A stretch of 58,091 bases of DNA from Candidatus Aminicenantes bacterium UBA647 (GCA_002299555.1 DBOL01000055.1:1-58091); one strand, 5' to 3'; positions 19,556-24,973 are shown, counted from the first letter of the stretch. Made by a program: numbers and translations. Notes: a model not told the origin generated them from the sequence alone.

Positions 19556-19759
19556 TTACCTGGCATTTTTGGATCTTTTAAGTAACCTGTTGGGAAGAGT
19601 TATTATGGATTTAAGAAGGTCAAATACCGCTCCTACCGCAAATCCGAAAATTCTGAGCGGTAACAACAATATCCATATGATCGGATACAATATCAATGCA
19701 AGTAGAGCTAACGGCCAACTGAAATAGAACAATATCATCCACAGTAAAAATCCTTTCAT
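19556..19759 (-). CDS. Small hydrophobic membrane protein (67 aa)
   Basis: AAGGAG SD before the ATG at 19759; sequence WPLALLALILYPIIWILLLPLRIFG...LPNRLL. Confidence 0.75.
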   Translation of the reverse strand: MKGFLLWMILFYFSWPLALLALILYPIIWILLLPLRIFGFAVGAVFDLLKSIITLPNRLLKRSKNAR

Positions 19760-19868
19760 TTTTTCTCCTTTAATATTTATACTCATATTCGAACATATTA
19801 GTTCTTATATGATTATTTTTCTATTGTCCCCTATCGAATATAAAATATTATATATAACTATTACCAGA

Positions 19869-22442
19869 TTATAAAATATTGTTTATTAAGTGACCTTCCT
19901 TAAAAATAATTTTAAATCCTTTAAAAGTCCGATCTGGTTTCAGGGAAAGATATTGATCATCATCAGATAAATATGAGAATAAAACCGGGAAGATATCTTG
20001 ATTTAAAACTAAATTTTGGTCAAATTTGGACGCTTTTTCTTTGTCCGGCCATCTTATTGCGATCATCGTACCAATTCTATCCCATATAAGATCAGTTGTA
20101 ATATCTTCTCTATTCCAGTTCTTAAGCCCGGTACCATCACCGGTTAGTTGCGGACCGTGATCTCCTATCGCAATAATTATCGCTTGTGGATCATTTTTAG
20201 TGATATTCTCAAAATCCTCTTGCATAAGTTTGTAACTCATTTTTAATCTTTCCATCCACCTTCTTTTTTCTCTTTCATTAATACTACCTGAATTTCCCGT
20301 ATGTCCGGGAAAATTTATATGATTTACAACAAACTTTTTTTCACCATCCTTTAGAGTCAATTCTCTTTTCTTAGCCTGAATTCTCTCAATTGTATGATCA
20401 CCAACAATACCTTCGGTGTCAAATTTCAACTCACCCTGGAAAATTCCTCTCAATAAAACAATGAAAAAATCTAACTCAGAAATTATTTTTTTCTCCTTAG
20501 ATGGATAATACTCTTCAACGAGTTTTCTTGTATTGTCATTTATACTCCCCGTCAAATAATTATTCAATATTTTATATGTTTTATAACCATTACTGTTAAA
20601 TACTCTATTAACTTTTGAATTTCCAGCATATATATCTCTAAGATGTGAAGATGAAAATAAATTTGCATTTGATATGCTTAAAACCCCTCCCATACTTTCC
20701 AGACTAGTGCTCCCTAATGAATATGTATCCTTATACCATTTAAAACCAAACTTAGTAAAAAGAGATTTTATTGTATTAGTTTCGATATTTAAAATATCAT
20801 AGGTTCTTTCATTCATGCTCCCATCATAAACAAGCAAATAAATGCTATTACTACCAGAAAAAGATATTTCAAGTTTATTGTTTGATGATACTTCAATGCT
20901 TTTATTTAAAGTTTCTGATGGAATAAAAATCAAACTTATTGAAAGAACAATGATTAAAGAAAGCCCGAAAATCCTTACTACATTAAATTGCTTTTTGGTT
21001 TTAATTTTTATCGTGAGAAAAAAAGTTGCCAGTAAGATTAACGAAAAATCAATGAAATTTGTGTTATTCCCAGCGTAATAAGCACGAATAATTGGCAATG
21101 AAGTTAACAGAAAAGCGAACAATGATGCAATCATTGCAACTCTTATATTTAGGAATTGTCCATTCGCGATGTATCGAACAAAAGAATATACAATTAATGC
21201 AAATATGGCAAAAATTGCAAAAAATATCAAATAAAATACTCCGGATAAATAATCAGGATTCATCCGTGCCAAATAAATTGCAGGACTTAAGGAAAACATA
21301 AAAACTACAGAAATTGCGGATTTATAATTTATATTTTTTACTGAGTTAATTGATTTATGCTTTGAAGAAATAAGTCCAGTGAAGAAATATACCCATGCTG
21401 TTACATATAAATAATATTTTAGATATATGGTCCTGTCATAGTAATAATTTTTCAGGCAAAACATAATGATTAAGGGTAGTATTAGAACCAACAAATAGAT
21501 TAAAGTGGTAATGGTTTGCTTACTGGTATGATTTTCAATAACGGTAATAGCACTTAAAATTAAAAACGAGATAGTAATAAACAAAAAAAAGTACAAGTTA
21601 CTCGGCATAAGAATTAAAGACATCCCAGTTAATTCTATTGAAAAAATAACATATAGTACCAATAGTGCAAAATAGATTCTTAATAATCCCCGGACTTTTT
21701 TCTTGCTGATAAAATTTATAACTTTATTGTAGTTGTACTTTATTGAAAGAGTATTCTGGTAGTTATAGTTAATTGATTTATTATAATTTAACCTCAGATA
21801 AATTGCGCCTAAAGCAAAAATAATGTTATTGACAGTCCAGTAAATTAACAATGCTGAAGAAGATTTGTAAAGTAATACGAATAAAAATAATGCTATAACA
21901 ATTGATTGATTCCTGGATTTTTTATTAATTTTCGGAATTAAGAATGCAGAGCAAATATTAATAGTAGTCATTAATACAGGTAATAATGATATTGAAAAAC
22001 TGATTATCCCTGAGTGTGATAGTAACAGGTCCGGACGGGACAGATCTTTAATTCCAAGGAAACTAATCCCTTTGAATGCTTCATAATTGTTTAAAATGTA
22101 ATAGGCTGCAAAAAGAAATGGGAGCTGAATAAATATAGGAATTGCTGCCCGTAAAGCCAAAATCGGATGGTAGCTATATCTTTTATACAAATTACTAATT
22201 CTTTGGTGTTTTTCAACTCCGGTTGTTTCTTTATTTATCTTATCAATTTGAGGTTGCAAAACAGCTTGTATTTGTATTTCTCTTTCAGGGAATTTTTTAA
22301 AAAAACTTTTTAAAGAAAACATTAAAATACTTGTAATGATTGATAAGAGAATTAAAGAAGTGCCAAAATTATTTGTTGATGTGTAGAGAAAATTGTAAAG
22401 ATTCTCAATTATTAAAATAAATGGATATAAAATTTTATTCAT
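19869..22442 (-). CDS. Fusion: N-terminal YidC/Oxa1-like domain, multi-TM domain and C-terminal sulfatase/alkaline-phosphatase-superfamily domain
   Basis: YidC motifs: LQPQIDKI, PIFIQLP, DLSRPD, LLIYWTVNN. Metal-ligand motifs of the AP superfamily: LLVYDG, NFPGH, IGDHG. Confidence 0.85.
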   Translation of the reverse strand: MNKILYPFILIIENLYNFLYTSTNNFGTSLILLSIITSILMFSLKSFFKKFPEREIQIQAVLQPQIDKINKETTGVEKHQRISNLYKRYSYHPILALRAAIPIFIQLPFLFAAYYILNNYEAFKGISFLGIKDLSRPDLLLSHSGIISFSISLLPVLMTTINICSAFLIPKINKKSRNQSIVIALFLFVLLYKSSSALLIYWTVNNIIFALGAIYLRLNYNKSINYNYQNTLSIKYNYNKVINFISKKKVRGLLRIYFALLVLYVIFSIELTGMSLILMPSNLYFFLFITISFLILSAITVIENHTSKQTITTLIYLLVLILPLIIMFCLKNYYYDRTIYLKYYLYVTAWVYFFTGLISSKHKSINSVKNINYKSAISVVFMFSLSPAIYLARMNPDYLSGVFYLIFFAIFAIFALIVYSFVRYIANGQFLNIRVAMIASLFAFLLTSLPIIRAYYAGNNTNFIDFSLILLATFFLTIKIKTKKQFNVVRIFGLSLIIVLSISLIFIPSETLNKSIEVSSNNKLEISFSGSNSIYLLVYDGSMNERTYDILNIETNTIKSLFTKFGFKWYKDTYSLGSTSLESMGGVLSISNANLFSSSHLRDIYAGNSKVNRVFNSNGYKTYKILNNYLTGSINDNTRKLVEEYYPSKEKKIISELDFFIVLLRGIFQGELKFDTEGIVGDHTIERIQAKKRELTLKDGEKKFVVNHINFPGHTGNSGSINEREKRRWMERLKMSYKLMQEDFENITKNDPQAIIIAIGDHGPQLTGDGTGLKNWNREDITTDLIWDRIGTMIAIRWPDKEKASKFDQNLVLNQDIFPVLFSYLSDDDQYLSLKPDRTFKGFKIIFKEGHLINNIL

Positions 22443-23694
22443 AATTCTCTTTGAATTTAAGTTGCTGTACTATGGCTGCGGCAGAACACCCGTAGTTTGA
22501 AACAATTGAATCTCTAAGGTTTTTCATGCGTACTACATCAAATTCATTATTTATCTTCAAAATATACTTTTCAATATCTATTAATTCTTCTGAATTTAAA
22601 ACATATCCAATTTCCCTTCCGGCTTCATCTATCAAAATTGAAGATATATCATCTCTCTCGTAACCTGGCATTGCACTTAGAGGTATTTTTAAAGTAATTA
22701 CTGGTTTACAATAAATAAAGGCATAGTCATATCTAAGTGAAGAAGTATCAGAAATCAACAAATCAGCAATACTCATTGATGGATTCGGGTCAATGGCTTC
22801 ATCCCAGCAAATATTCGGAATGTTCTTTAACTCTCTTTTATACTTTTCAATCAGTGATTTTTCTGATTTTAGTGATTGAGGATGAGGCCTGAAGATTATA
22901 TTTACATCTCCTTTAGCAAGCTTTTTTATAAAGCCTGTACCATAATAATTCAATAATCCTTTCTTTCCCCAAGATGAACCAATTAAAATTGTTTTATTTG
23001 GATTTTCATTTCTTGAGCTTACCTTCCCTTTCAAAAGTTCATCTAGATAAGGTAATCCTAATGGAGTCAATTTTTTAGTTTTAATACCCCGCTTTTCCTC
23101 AATTTCTCTAATTGCTTTTTTCTGAAAATCCCCTGCCATATAAACTTCATCGTAAAAATCCAGGGAATGTTTTTTATATATTGAAATATCGCTTACCGAG
23201 TGAAAAAAATGGATCATTCTTTTTATATTTTTTGGTCTGGGGAGATAACCTTCTGCTCCAATATTTGGTGTGGTTGTTAAAAGTATATCTCCTTTTATTG
23301 CCATAAATTTTGCTCTTGAGGATATGCCATACCTGAGAAATTTTGAGTTAATAAATTCATTTTCTATGAGCAATGCCGGATCTTCAATATCTATCGAATA
23401 GTAATAAAAAACAATCTTTGATTTTATCAATTCATCTATTATCGCTCTATAGGAATTCCAATATTGTTTGCCTTCACTAAAAATAGAAATACTTATCTGA
23501 TTCTTTCTTTTCTTTTTTTCTTTCAACTCTTTTTTGTTTTTTCGGATCAATCTTATAATCAATTCCTTCATTCCATAACCTATGGCAACAAATCCTGATA
23601 TAACAATATTTATTAGAGCAGTTCCGGTTCCCGGATCTAAATATGCATAAAGTACACCCGATAAAAGGAAAAGTAATAGAGTAAAAACCAACAT
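22435..23694 (-). CDS. CDP-glycerol glycerophosphotransferase (TagB/TagF)-like protein with signal peptide, YLDPGTG and TM head
   Basis: HFFHS, GLPYLD, GSSWG, FRPHPQS, ADLLISDTSS and KPVI correspond to the TagF-family motifs; 8-nt overlap with the next gene. Confidence 0.8.
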   Translation of the reverse strand: MLVFTLLLFLLSGVLYAYLDPGTGTALINIVISGFVAIGYGMKELIIRLIRKNKKELKEKKKRKNQISISIFSEGKQYWNSYRAIIDELIKSKIVFYYYSIDIEDPALLIENEFINSKFLRYGISSRAKFMAIKGDILLTTTPNIGAEGYLPRPKNIKRMIHFFHSVSDISIYKKHSLDFYDEVYMAGDFQKKAIREIEEKRGIKTKKLTPLGLPYLDELLKGKVSSRNENPNKTILIGSSWGKKGLLNYYGTGFIKKLAKGDVNIIFRPHPQSLKSEKSLIEKYKRELKNIPNICWDEAIDPNPSMSIADLLISDTSSLRYDYAFIYCKPVITLKIPLSAMPGYERDDISSILIDEAGREIGYVLNSEELIDIEKYILKINNEFDVVRMKNLRDSIVSNYGCSAAAIVQQLKFKENYE

Positions 23695-23734
23695 TAAAAC
23701 CCACTTTTAGTAAGATAAATTTCAAACATAGGAT

Positions 23735-23813
23735 TGATGCAAATATGAGAAGTTTTAATACCGGGAATTAAGCAATTGATGAAAAATATCAATTATTGTT
23801 TCCCGTTGCATCA
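23735..23813 (-). other. Nested inverted repeats in the leader of the TagF-like/YidC-fusion operon
   Basis: Arms TGATGCAA/TTGCATCA (23735-42, 23806-13), CGGGAA/TTCCCG (23762-67, 23800-05) and AATTGAT/ATCAATT (23774-80, 23788-94). Confidence 0.6.
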
Positions 23814-24007
23814 GCAGCCAGACCCGGATAAAGATGGTTTTTATTGTCTTTCGTAAGCGTCAAAAACACTCCTTTTCTAATTTTAATTAATTGAAATTAC
23901 TTTTTCAAGTCAGATTTGTGAACATTCATGGGAAGCATGTCAGCAGAATATATTTATACAACAATACTGCAAGAGAATTGTTTGCACACCTTTAATTATT
24001 TCTTTGT

Positions 24008-24973
24008 CTATTTAATTCCAAATATTTCCTTTAATGGATTTAAGAAATTGTCTATTCTGAATTTTTTTATAAGAAATTCAAATGCGGTTTGCGATGTTTC
24101 ACCCCTATACATCTCATCTTCTTTATTCTGAAGTTTATAGATAGTTATTAAGTTTTCGCTGCTTCCCGTAAGTTTAATAGAGAAAAGCTGCTCTGATGCT
24201 TTCAGTTCATTTCTATCATAAACATACTCGTCACATGATAAGTTCGAAATGGTATTAAGTATAGAGTTTACTTTGGAGTTCTCTATTGGTGTTTTATTGA
24301 ATACCCACTCTGTTTCAGATTCCATTCCATTACTATTTCCTGCGCCACCTTCAACTCTTTTTTTAACCGGGGTAATGGATTTATTCAACACATATTCTTT
24401 TCCATCTATATTTAATATTATCTGTTTTATTTTATCTTTTTCAATCAGGAATACTTTCTTGTATCTCAGATCATCAATTGATTTATCAAGTTCTTTATTA
24501 ATCGATCCTGTTGCATGATAAATCCTCTCATCGCCTTTGATCTTAACATTGGTATGATCATACGTAGAAGCTACTTTGCCGGCATCAAATTCTCTAACCA
24601 TTTCTTTTCCGGTGAACACCTTTACGTTTATTTTTCTGGGATCATCAAGTTCATATTTATAATAATTGCCTGATTTAGAAACAAGGGTCGTTAATTTAAG
24701 ATTACAAACAATATTTTTTATTTTATCTATCTTAAAATCATCTGTTTTAAAACCTTCCTCCCCTACTACCCATCCGCCTTTCCTATTCTCCAGATCAACT
24801 ACCCTTTCACCTTTTGAAATTGAAATTTTTGTTATTGTGTTTGTTTTTATATTTACCAATTCAGGTACTTTGTAATGAACTCTGTCAGTTTTCTTGAAAA
24901 GGATATAAGCAAAAGACAAAACAATTACAATACTAATTATAATGATCTCAAAGTTAATTTTTTTTTTACCCAT
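24008..24973 (-). CDS. DUF4340 domain protein (partner of the GldAFG-like ABC system)
   Basis: N-terminal TM, W.V....D..KI, YELDDP and DLRYKKVF; downstream of a GldG-like gene. AAGGAG SD before the ATG at 24973. Confidence 0.8.
   Translation of the reverse strand: MGKKKINFEIIIISIVIVLSFAYILFKKTDRVHYKVPELVNIKTNTITKISISKGERVVDLENRKGGWVVGEEGFKTDDFKIDKIKNIVCNLKLTTLVSKSGNYYKYELDDPRKINVKVFTGKEMVREFDAGKVASTYDHTNVKIKGDERIYHATGSINKELDKSIDDLRYKKVFLIEKDKIKQIILNIDGKEYVLNKSITPVKKRVEGGAGNSNGMESETEWVFNKTPIENSKVNSILNTISNLSCDEYVYDRNELKASEQLFSIKLTGSSENLITIYKLQNKEDEMYRGETSQTAFEFLIKKFRIDNFLNPLKEIFGIK

Follow-up and report, generated by a model that had tools for sequence, protein, structure and literature searches.

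The catalytic histidines of TagF are H444 and H584, and TagF and TagB, to our knowledge, associate with the membrane peripherally and have no transmembrane head. The YidC substrates that we know of share no common sequence motif and use the housekeeping YidC. DltX is a microprotein partner of DltB/DltD in the D-alanylation of teichoic acids. For the phosphonate (Pnt) pathway, which involves PntC-Ppm, Ppd and AEPT/PhpC, the transfer and export steps have been left open, and only LicD-like enzymes, glycosyltransferases or 'sulfatases' have been named (PMC6697681, Rice et al. 2019; PMC8942020, Li and Horsman 2022). The available text of a preprint presents FtaD of Clostridioides difficile as a TagF-like enzyme that uses a non-polyol donor, CDP-N-methylthreonine, made by FtaA–FtaC (bioRxiv 10.64898/2026.02.12.704994).

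Here, we analyze a 58,091-nucleotide stretch of DNA from Candidatus Aminicenantes bacterium UBA647 (DBOL01000055.1), referred to as a whole as the window, in which a TagF-like enzyme with a short membrane head is encoded together with a YidC-like fusion protein. The head and the YidC-like domain form a pair that is probably part of a machine adding phosphonate or phosphate groups to the cell envelope.

Organization of the two-gene cassette

The cassette with its intergenic edges occupies positions 19787–24007, between a DUF4340 gene and a small conserved transmembrane ORF, at a variable insertion spot. It consists of the head-TagF ORF (22435–23694, minus strand, 419 aa) and the partner ORF (19869–22442, minus strand, 857 aa), which share 8 nt at 22435–22442, where the end of the former meets the start of the latter (tATGAATAA); this overlap suggests translational coupling of the two genes. 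The GC content of the cassette is 29.5%, as compared with 37.6% for the genome. The TagF-like gene was found in none of seven same-genus genomes, and a further 300 sampled genomes of the phylum, two of the same genus included, lack the YidC fusion. The site of the cassette holds only ~270 nt in genome G342 and other cargo in G344. A self-contained, horizontally acquired, envelope-decorating cassette is the best explanation of this locus.

Anatomy and conservation of the head

The translation of head-TagF opens with MLVFTLLLFLLSGVLYA/YLDPGTG/TALINIVISGFVAIGYGM/KELIIRLIRKNKKELKEKKKRKNQ, i.e., a leader followed by A|YLDPGTG, a transmembrane helix and a basic stretch. Residues 1–17 (MLVFTLLLFLLSGVLYA; 23644–23694, minus strand) resemble a signal peptide ending in L-Y-A, which would either be cleaved by signal peptidase I or else form the first helix of a hairpin. 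The conserved YLDPGTG motif (residues 18–24; 23623–23643, minus strand; pattern match at 23624–23646) is predicted to lie on the outer face, and a pattern search returned it as the single occurrence of its type in the genome. It is followed by a small-residue-rich helix (residues 25–42, TALINIVISGFVAIGYGM; 23569–23622, minus strand), for which the positive-inside rule points to an N-out/C-in orientation, and by a basic stop-transfer and linker stretch (residues 43–66, KELIIRLIRKNKKELKEKKKRKNQ; 23497–23568, minus strand), predicted to be cytoplasmic. The AF2 model places a turn at residues 19–20 between two helices, the second of which spans residues 21–51. The initial annotation had read a TagF-like enzyme with a leader, YLDPGTG, a transmembrane segment and a basic stretch here; this description agrees exactly with the start of the ORF, and the product has a TagF-like fold.

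Among 115 homologues, P21 is invariant, and A17, Y18, L19, D20, G22 and G24 are conserved in at least 90%. The anatomy of the head was tallied over 152 distinct heads, of which 109 carry an h-region of the signal-peptide type and 33 (22%) lack the leader entirely. Of the 152 heads, 146 have A or G at position −1, 130 have A, V, L or I at −3, and 106 have a Pro at −7 to −4; judged by the −1/−3 rule and this Pro, 72% of the heads appear compatible with cleavage by signal peptidase I. The 19 residues past the motif have a mean Kyte–Doolittle value of 1.68; beyond the helix, the mean net charge is +2.6, with positive values in 89% of the 152 heads. The consensus thus comprises an optional signal-peptidase-type leader, A|Y-[LIV]-D-P-[GA]-[ST]-[GT], a small-residue-rich helix and a basic stretch, with two motif families, YLDPG[ST]G and YIDPATT, that both contain a conserved Ser/Thr. 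Substrates that depend on YidC only are marked by a short, acidic translocated segment, one helix and positive charges on the inside, and this anatomy, with the predicted topology, can be read from the sequence and recurs in the tally of 152 heads. The layout expected at the outset, a cleaved signal followed by a short external peptide and one N-out helix, fits this tally in its leader with an AxA-type site, acidic outer peptide, helix and basic stretch, although 22% of the heads lack the leader.

A head-only profile of 41 columns, searched against 1.84 billion proteins at E ≤ 1e-3, retrieved 3238 protein clusters, and most of the top matches are proteins of 55–130 aa. The conservation in 115 homologues, the 152 distinct heads, the 3238 clusters and the single copy in the genome place the motif beyond chance. 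The head represents a separate evolutionary module, widespread and undescribed.

The TagF-like catalytic domain

The catalytic domain (residues 67–419 and the stop codon; 22435–23496, minus strand) is a TagF-like GT-B domain that is predicted to be cytoplasmic. PF04464 matches head-TagF with 23.2 bits (cut-off 22.1), residues 257–334 aligning with profile positions 222–291 (70/367), and many head-TagF homologues carry a precomputed match to the same family. The AF2 model (pLDDT 89.8) has the two-Rossmann fold of GT-B enzymes, and the top three Foldseek matches in the PDB are TagF structures (3L7M, 3L7J and 3L7K; E 1e-10 to 3e-10, TM ~0.5), the best being 3L7M at E 9.6e-11. The profile of the 115 homologues gave no match to PDB sequences at E ≤ 0.01, solved TagF included. 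The TagF assignment draws on a weak, partial Pfam match together with the predicted fold. H162, H165, R269, H271, S318 and D323 do not vary within the family, and the domain is probably a transferase for CMP- or CDP-activated head groups.

The partner protein

The partner begins with a YidC/Oxa1-like domain (residues 1–225; 21768–22442, minus strand), a non-housekeeping copy that is recognized by PF02096 (70.2 bits, cut-off 35), by Foldseek against 3WO6 (TMt 0.71, rmsd 3.6) and by a profile match to E. coli YidC (E 8e-16), in which a consensus S is aligned with R366. In the window, Ser38 takes the position of the canonical Arg/Lys of the YidC groove, and this replacement makes the canonical Asp–Arg pairing impossible for the pair encoded here. 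The genome encodes its housekeeping YidC separately, as a 599-aa protein on contig C83 (212.7 bits). A role of the partner domain as the general insertase of the cell is contradicted by this separate housekeeping copy and by the lack of the fusion in the rest of the phylum as sampled (300 genomes).

About nine predicted transmembrane helices follow (residues 226–520; 20883–21767, minus strand; helices at 248–505 in the AF2 model), in a region that is poorly conserved in the alignment of the partner family. The C-terminal part (residues 521–857 and the stop codon; 19869–20882, minus strand) is an alkaline phosphatase (AP)-superfamily domain of the LtaS/EptA/MCR-1 type, predicted to be extracytoplasmic, whose Foldseek matches include EptC 6A82, EptA 5FGN, MCR-1, PbgA and LtaS 2W5R; the partner profile also matches S. 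aureus LtaS 2W5R (E 2e-5). In the family alignment (A2), the D761-H762-G763 triplet is invariant, and the conservation of H714 reaches at least 90%. The candidate nucleophile is a Thr or Ser in YSLGSTSLESM, a column that is not invariant.

Co-occurrence of the head with YidC-like domains

On the evidence of gene neighborhoods, the head tracks specialized, non-housekeeping YidC-like domains rather than TagF, and it does so in four architectures, regardless of what either is fused to. The window belongs to type A, in which head-TagF accompanies a YidC–AP fusion, the two being directly adjacent in 36/44 loci from more than 10 phyla. In type B, a stand-alone mini-protein of 60–100 aa directly precedes a YidC–TagF fusion (L133, L134, L154), and in type C, a YidC–TagF fusion is followed by a head-bearing protein of the Sulfatase family (L169, L144, L166). 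Type D combines the mini-protein with a stand-alone YidC-like protein of 210–230 aa, to which a headless TagF or a sulfatase may be added (L252, L254, L256, L259). L252 and L254 provide mini-protein contexts without an AP-type enzyme nearby. No natural fusion of the head to YidC was found. For heads of the AYIDPATT type, a YidC-like gene lies within 2.5 kb in 50 of the 55 evaluable cases. Conversely, a YidC partner is absent for headless TagF relatives without a mini-protein (L026, L089, L090), and in L089 and L090 these relatives adjoin a YidC-less sulfatase protein.

In an unbiased sample of 121 Cloacimonadota genomes, eight contain both the motif and the fusion, two the fusion only, one the motif only and 110 neither (Fisher p = 4e-10), the lone motif being a chance match inside a secreted protein. 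The two fusion-only genomes come from MAGs that are incomplete, and the head was searched for with a strict pattern. Across 36 pair-bearing genomes, the motif is confined to TagF-like genes or their remnants beside YidC fusions, apart from one chance match in an unrelated gene. Two exceptions occur in Treponemataceae, whose fusions, one or four of them, are encoded elsewhere in the genome and not linked to the single head-TagF gene.

The four architectures, the negative controls and the Cloacimonadota counts therefore uphold both the pairing idea of the initial annotation and the stand-alone mini-proteins that it had described from surface-polysaccharide loci, one of which (L256) does lie in such a locus. 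A distribution of the motif independent of YidC fusions, which would have spoken against the idea, is clearly refuted by the loci and the genome counts. The notion of a dedicated pair is thus borne out by the adjacency, the counts and the headless TagF relatives without YidC, but the partner is not specifically the YidC–sulfatase fusion; as an obligatory partner, this fusion is rejected, since the YidC-like domain is also fused to TagF or stands alone.

The groove position varies with architecture. It is S, T, G, A or Y in the majority of partners of types A and D, the Arg being retained only in L027, L038, L040 and L091, whereas all 67 YidC–TagF fusions, like the housekeeping YidC copies, keep Lys or Arg. 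The residue after the motif Pro follows this charge, with 71 cases of PA heads with Lys/Arg against 0/~33 for PG heads, a relation that is confounded by phylogeny.

Link to phosphonate metabolism

A PntC-Ppm gene lies directly upstream of the pair in 20/44 loci and is present in 25/40 pair-bearing genomes. It is also found in the genome of the window, on contig C48 with Ppd and Fe-ADH genes, and in 6/7 congeners. The phosphonate cluster of this genome already contains a CDP-alcohol phosphatidyltransferase, which leaves the donor and acceptor for the cassette uncertain. In loci of the Vibrio/Colwellia type, genes for a PPDK-like protein and a nucleotidyltransferase lie beside the pair. Both contexts (PntC-Ppm/Ppd/Fe-ADH, or PPDK-like and nucleotidyltransferase) argue for donors other than CDP-glycerol or CDP-ribitol.

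Proposed mechanism and alternative explanations

Drawing on the sequence anatomy, the folds, the co-occurrence over four architectures, the cassette nature of the locus and the phosphonate linkage, we infer a physical contact between head and partner and hold it somewhat more probable than not that the head is a permanent partner subunit at or in the YidC-like groove, in a complex that transfers phospho- or phosphonate groups to the envelope. The helix and the short outer peptide of the head would be permanently lodged at or in the groove of the YidC-like domain, which the downstream gene of the overlapping pair encodes, so that the head would also tether the TagF-like transferase to the YidC-like/nine-helix/LtaS–EptA-like partner; the private YidC-like domain may, in addition, assist the insertion of the head. 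A CMP-activated head group, most likely CMP-2-hydroxyethylphosphonate or CMP-aminoethylphosphonate, would be made by the PntC-Ppm, Ppd and Fe-ADH proteins of contig C48, and the TagF-like domain would load it onto a membrane acceptor in the inner leaflet. The loaded acceptor would then cross the bilayer along the YidC-like groove, a step for which the in vitro scrambling of lipids by E. coli YidC is cited as precedent (PMC11047089), and the outer LtaS/EptA-like domain would hand the group to an envelope acceptor.

The initial annotation had instead proposed an address tag for the enzyme, which would make the head a transient substrate of a private YidC-like insertase, comparable to M13 procoat when a leader is present and to Pf3 coat when it is not, with no lasting complex. 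The head does have the anatomy of a classical YidC-only substrate (a single helix with positive charges on the inside and, ahead of it, a short translocated segment that carries the (near-)invariant Asp), leaderless heads need N-tail translocation, TagF-fused YidC-like domains invariably keep the groove Lys/Arg, and the co-occurrence of the head with YidC-like genes is tight. This proposal is, however, too narrow, because the mini-proteins, which carry no cargo, suggest a subunit that stays with its partner permanently; it likewise leaves unexplained why sulfatase-type proteins beside YidC–TagF bear the head. Moreover, the housekeeping YidC should manage so simple a helix, the groove Arg is missing here, as it is in the majority of partners of types A and D, the (near-)invariant Y, D and P of the outer face have no counterpart in a common motif of the known YidC substrates, and the fusion of the YidC-like domain itself to enzymes fits a structural role. 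We consider a mere address tag unlikely.

The head could also be a covalent carrier or acceptor, by analogy with DltX, in which Tyr18 or the Ser/Thr at +5 would take up the phospho- or phosphonate group and pass it on with the LtaS/EptA-like domain. The (near-)invariant Tyr and Asp, the outer-face Ser/Thr that both motif families conserve, the stand-alone microprotein form and the constant company of membrane transferases agree with such a role, to which we nevertheless assign a still lower probability: its chemistry is pure conjecture, the TagF-like domain lies on the other side of the membrane, LtaS/EptA-type enzymes have a Thr nucleophile of their own and require no carrier, and L252 and L254 have no AP-type enzyme close by. 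Least probable, in our judgment, is that the head merely anchors a TagF subfamily at the membrane, its link to YidC reflecting a common pathway or operon without contact. TagF-type enzymes do have to act at the membrane, operon partners co-occur in any case, any contact of head and YidC is putative, and the Treponemataceae genes are unlinked. Yet an invariant outer motif is superfluous for anchoring, the head occurs in three carrier states (on TagF, on a sulfatase-type protein and alone) and its locus or genome always contains a YidC-like gene as well, headless TagF relatives are paired with YidC-less sulfatase proteins, and the motif residue after Pro follows the groove charge, albeit with the confounding by phylogeny given above.

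Comparison with known systems

Head-TagF shares the GT-B fold and the RPHP and SDTSS-type motifs with TagF, TagB, TarF and TarL (PF04464; S. epidermidis TagF 3L7I–3L7M), and its domain, modeled as cytoplasmic, would similarly release CMP from a CDP- or CMP-activated donor. It differs in covering only 70/367 positions of the family profile, in lacking a sequence-profile match to TagF in the PDB and in its context, which is that of CMP-phosphonate or other CDP-alcohol donors in diderm bacteria and not of wall teichoic acid. A precedent for the use of varied CDP donors by TagF-like enzymes is FtaD, whose donor pathway (FtaA–FtaC) compares with the Vibrio/Colwellia-type loci; as far as the available text of that preprint goes, FtaD acts on O-GlcNAc of flagellin-derived peptides, and no head, YidC-like or AP-type partner is mentioned in it (10.64898/2026.02.12.704994). 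The PntC-Ppm fusion, Ppd and Fe-ADH genes are common to the Pnt pathway and to the genomic surroundings of the pair, both upstream of it and in the genome of the window, whereas a TagF-like/YidC-like/head module is not described in the papers on that pathway (PMC6697681, PMC8942020).

The head resembles M13 procoat in that its leader has an AxA-type site and that a peptide predicted to be translocated, short and acidic, precedes a single helix with basic residues on the inside, and leaderless heads share a short N-out tail with Pf3 coat; unlike both, the head has (near-)invariant outer Y, D and P residues and also occurs by itself as a microprotein. The YidC fold of the partner domain is genuine, but this domain is a private paralogue, fused to an enzyme and without the groove Arg in the window. 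DltX and the head are presumably alike as tiny single-pass proteins with a short conserved Tyr motif on the outer face, whose genes accompany those of envelope-decorating membrane transferases, although we take them to have no sequence relation, and the DltX motif is C-terminal. LtaS, GacH, EptA (MCR-1) and PbgA share with the partner the fold, the GDHG metal site and, as predicted for the partner, an extracytoplasmic placement behind a polytopic region; compared with LtaS and EptA, which have five helices, the partner has a YidC-like domain and about nine helices before its AP domain, and its gene overlaps that of a TagF-like enzyme.

The TagF-like gene and its partner

The TagF-like gene (22435-23694, minus strand) comprises 419 open codons, and its translated start, MLVFTLLLFLLSGVLYA-YLDPGTG-TALINIVISGFVAIGYGM-KELIIRLIRKNKKELKEKKKRKNQ, matches the head claimed in the initial annotation, i.e., a leader, the motif, a transmembrane (TM) helix and a basic stretch. 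In the AlphaFold2 model (pLDDT 89.8), the head forms a helix (residues 2-18), a turn (19-20) and a second helix (21-51). Beyond the head, sequence and model identify the predicted enzyme part as a GT-B enzyme of the TagF type: PF04464 scores 23.2 bits against a cut-off of 22.1, with only 70 of 367 profile positions matched, and TagF, the teichoic acid polymerase, accounts for the three best PDB matches to the model. With a profile of 115 homologues, no PDB sequence was matched; thus, TagF is only a remote relative.

The downstream partner gene (19869-22442, minus strand) overlaps the TagF-like gene by 8 nt (tATGAATAA) and encodes 857 residues in three parts. Its YidC-like domain is recognized by PF02096 (70 bits), by Foldseek against 3WO6 (TMt 0.71) and by profile comparison with E. 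coli YidC (E 8e-16). About nine more helices follow, and the C-terminal alkaline-phosphatase (AP)-superfamily domain, in which the DHG triplet is invariant, most resembles EptC, EptA, MCR-1, PbgA and LtaS. Since a housekeeping-type YidC (599 aa, 212.7 bits) is encoded elsewhere in the genome, the fused domain is a private paralogue. The position of the Arg/Lys of the YidC hydrophilic groove is occupied by Ser38.

Conservation of the head

A homology search with the TagF-like protein retrieved 550 relatives of ~420 aa from many phyla. The motif lies near the N-terminus in 107 of the best 120 of these, and in an alignment of 115 sequences P21 is invariant and conservation reaches at least 90% at A17, Y18, L19, D20, G22 and G24, which shows that the head is conserved and not a product of chance. 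Among 152 distinct heads, 88 have the motif form YLDPGSG and 45 YLDPGTG, and a few are PA or PS variants. A hydrophobic leader is present in 109. Ala (134 heads) or Gly (12) stands at position -1, one of A, V, L or I at -3 (130 heads), and a Pro at -7 to -4 (106 heads). The motif is followed by 19 hydrophobic residues and then by 20 with a mean net charge of +2.6. Judged from composition, this pattern is the signature of a putative signal-peptidase-I site followed by an N-out/C-in helix. The leader is dispensable, since in 33 heads (22%), chiefly of Verrucomicrobiota and Lentisphaerota, the Tyr is preceded by just 3-12 residues. What stays constant is the core A-Y-[LI]-D-P-G-[ST]-G together with the helix.

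Pfam and NCBIfam returned no family for the head or for the related mini-proteins, only sub-threshold noise. A literature search found no paper containing the motif, and a search for YidC, sulfatase and glycerophosphotransferase together gave nothing relevant. One locus (L043:6801-9224) carries a continuous 807-codon frame in which phosphonopyruvate decarboxylase is joined to a head-bearing TagF. If this frame is real and no assembly error, the "leader" would be an internal N-in/C-out helix and the head a hairpin with the motif in its outer turn.

Co-occurrence of the head and the YidC-like domain

The initial annotation had paired the head with the adjacent YidC domain, and this pairing holds beyond the window. 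Of 44 genome loci encoding TagF-like relatives, 36 have a homologue of the YidC fusion right next to the relative's gene, mostly downstream and, in Akkermansia, upstream. For four of the remaining eight loci, the partner-side sequence is too short to judge. At L033 the contig start leaves only the tail of a YidC fusion, and two Treponemataceae loci lack an adjacent fusion, their genomes encoding four and one elsewhere. The relative at L026 is genuinely headless, in-frame stop codons lying directly before its start; no YidC fusion lies within 8 kb of it, and its genome, incomplete at 1.3 Mb, yielded none either. A second headless relative (protein P0056, loci L089/L090) adjoins a 583-aa membrane protein of the Sulfatase family that has no YidC domain. 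Both headless loci were also checked for a head mini-protein, and neither has one.

Of 121 Cloacimonadota genomes sampled without bias, 10 have the fusion, nine the motif pattern and eight both (Fisher's exact p = 4e-10); the ninth motif match falls by chance inside a secreted protein of 1009 aa, and the two fusion-only genomes are incomplete assemblies. Across 36 pair-carrying genomes, the motif outside the pair amounts to two decayed copies beside extra YidC fusions and a chance hit in an unrelated gene (L126). A role as a general tag on many enzymes per genome is therefore ruled out, as only TagF-like genes or their remnants carry the head there. No natural fusion of the head to a YidC-like domain was found.

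One Treponemataceae genome (G301) contains three tandem paralogues of the YidC-like/polytopic/AP-type fusion, of 954-969 aa (L086:5316-14062, contig C16), and a fourth elsewhere. A single unlinked head-TagF gene serves all four, an arrangement that may represent one donor-making enzyme with several acceptor-specific transferases.

Mini-proteins and other architectures

Scanning metagenome contigs for the back-translated motif AYIDPATT yielded 120 stretches with 121 motif-bearing ORFs, 42 of at most 100 aa and 54 of more than 300 aa. The small proteins consist of a leader, SA/YIDPATT, a helix and a basic tail, and proteins of 632-678 aa combining YidC-like and TagF domains start within a few bases after them (L133, L134, L154). 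The large ones (~650-760 aa) belong to the Sulfatase family, possess their own N-terminal head and follow the YidC-TagF fusion (L169, L144, L166). A YidC-like gene lies within 2.5 kb of 50 of the 55 evaluable heads of this type.

A 41-column profile of the window-type head matched 3238 clusters among 1.84 billion proteins, and 94 of the 145 top hits examined are at most 130 aa long without the start of TagF. Their context was read from part of the contigs, several being too short; where readable, these mini-proteins adjoin stand-alone YidC-like proteins of 210-230 aa. Beside the two lie a headless TagF (L252, L256), an unassigned 481-aa protein (L254) or a sulfatase with a phosphonate ABC importer (L259). 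At L256 and L260 the mini-protein gene directly adjoins the start of a headless TagF gene or runs into it, as if the window's gene had been split in two. L256 sits in a surface-polysaccharide locus, a setting that the initial annotation named for stand-alone mini-proteins. In two loci (L253:2046-3287, L254:720-2165), a protein of 413-481 aa with no significant Pfam hit takes TagF's place between the mini-protein and the YidC-like gene; it may be a different class of transferase on the same head/YidC platform.

Head carriers are thus TagF, a sulfatase-type enzyme or nothing else, and carriers of the YidC-like domain are an AP-type enzyme, TagF or nothing else; the two occur together in every architecture found. 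By its distribution, the head is a separate module of its own. Neither the window's genome nor the 44 loci with the window's arrangement contain a stand-alone mini-protein; these were seen only in other lineages, apart from one 88-aa ORF in an Elusimicrobiota genome (L124:5785-6051; G332, contig C18). This ORF has an intact head (AYLDPGTG plus helix) followed by the first TagF residues only, and shares bases with the stop codon of a third YidC-AP fusion. It represents either what is left of a TagF gene or a new mini-protein emerging by gene fission.

Genomic setting and the phosphonate link

The TagF-like gene is absent from all seven congeners, and the YidC fusion was found in none of the other 300 genomes sampled from the phylum. 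The GC content of this two-gene cassette is 29.5% vs 37.6% for the genome. It occupies a variable spot (19787-24450) between a DUF4340 gene and a small conserved TM ORF (19556-19786). The spot is nearly empty in one congener (G342, L128), and in another (G344, L129) it holds two unrelated genes of 310 and 141 aa, whose sequences suggest a WYL-type regulator and a GyrI-like protein. The small 76-aa ORF is excluded as a cassette member, being conserved in congeners that lack the cassette. A promoter and terminator scan performed no better than on shuffled sequence.

A cytidylyltransferase-PEP-mutase fusion (PntC-Ppm) and a phosphonopyruvate decarboxylase precede the pair in 20 of the 44 loci, joined by an Fe-alcohol dehydrogenase in 12. 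PntC-Ppm is present in 25 of 40 pair-carrying genomes, the background being about 5% of bacterial genomes (PMC8942020). The Vibrio and Colwellia loci carry instead a PPDK-like kinase, a class-I amidotransferase and a nucleotidyltransferase. In Treponemataceae and Desulfovibrionales, head-TagF follows a nucleotidyltransferase of the cytidylyltransferase type and a binding-protein ABC importer (L016:2912-7847, L091:1916-5983), which suggests a head group scavenged from outside rather than synthesized. These differing genes indicate that the donor varies, being a CMP-phosphonate in most loci and some other CDP-activated alcohol in the remainder. Unusual CDP donors of TagF-like enzymes have precedent, e.g., in FtaD (bioRxiv 10.64898/2026.02.12.704994).

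The window's genome has a phosphonate cluster on another contig (C48:16104-21308), comprising PntC-Ppm, Ppd, Fe-ADH and two further genes. The Fe-ADH is putatively PhpC-like and would give 2-hydroxyethylphosphonate; by its motifs as read, a 223-aa gene encodes a CDP-alcohol phosphatidyltransferase, and the divergent gene beside it looks like an LPG-synthase-TM/flippase. As the cluster (PntC-Ppm) is conserved in six of the seven same-genus genomes, this genus is likely to produce a phosphonolipid even without the cassette. The absence from congeners, the low GC content and the variable spot point to the pair as a mobile two-gene add-on to an existing CMP-phosphonate pool.

Targeting signal or partner subunit

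The initial annotation read the head as a possible address tag guiding the TagF-like enzyme to a private insertase. Its observation is confirmed and its interpretation partly supported: the pairing stands, and the targeting mechanism is too narrow and the less likely account. Such a tag finds support in the groove Lys/Arg, which is kept in 67 of 67 YidC-TagF fusions accompanying AYIDPATT heads; against it, this residue is Ser38 here and is missing in most window-type partners. A tag would be pointless on mini-proteins that carry no cargo, and YidC-TagF fusions, in which the enzyme is already joined to YidC, nevertheless keep a head. The cell also has a housekeeping YidC, and the outer-face residues of the head are invariant or nearly so, which to our knowledge is not a feature of known YidC substrates. 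Together, these points favor a permanent partner subunit, which would sit at or in the YidC-like groove and, where fused, would also tether the enzyme to the complex. The private YidC-like domain may help to insert the head, an activity compatible with a partner subunit and not required by it.

The groove Lys/Arg is also kept in four partners of YLDPASG heads that have the window's arrangement, and is missing in all partners of YLDPG[ST]G heads. PA heads thus go with Lys/Arg in 71 cases and PG heads in 0 of ~33, a comparison confounded by phylogeny, and Treponema-type PATG heads are exceptions to the PA rule. The possible covariation of the residue after Pro with groove charge is suggestive and hints at a contact between head and YidC-like domain. 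Pairing of Asp20 with the groove Arg is ruled out as a recognition principle for the window, whose groove residue is Ser.

For the function of the system, a three-step model is the most economical, given that the outer domain of the partner resembles EptA and LtaS, enzymes that draw head groups from membrane lipids, and that purified E. coli YidC scrambles phospholipids (PMC11047089). A lipid-linked head group would be synthesized inside, would pass along the YidC-like groove and would be transferred outside. More tentatively, and with the odds against it as a whole, we propose a new two-part device in which the Oxa1/YidC fold would have moved from inserting proteins to exporting small molecules. 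Capped on the outside by its Y-x-D-P residues, the head would complete or gate the groove, through which a lipid-linked phosphonate or phospho-alcohol head group made by the TagF-like enzyme would cross to the LtaS/EptA-like enzyme. The pair would then supply the transfer and export steps for which bacterial phosphonate surface tailoring still lacks a machinery. Given the 2-hydroxyethylphosphonate genes in the window's genome, the product could be a teichoic-acid-like poly(hydroxyethylphosphonate).

Comparison with known systems

Cell-surface molecules are believed to take up about half of bacterial phosphonate capacity, and the steps past CMP activation have been called enigmatic (PMC6697681); phosphonate papers name only "sulfatases", in Selenomonas clusters (PMC6697681, PMC8942020). 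The cassette is a concrete candidate for these steps and is directly testable, since it consists of two genes only and plugs into the host's CMP-phosphonate pool. The pairing of head and YidC-like domain, which holds through four gene-fusion states and thousands of protein clusters, is a classic genomic signature of a physical complex. We know of no YidC-fold domain with a dedicated, sequence-specific partner peptide and of no YidC fold that is a built-in part of an enzyme pathway. The components belong to known families, and neither the head/YidC-like pairing nor the system is described in the literature and domain libraries searched; the present names of the parts, i.e., CDP-glycerol glycerophosphotransferase, YidC and sulfatase, hide the system that they appear to form.
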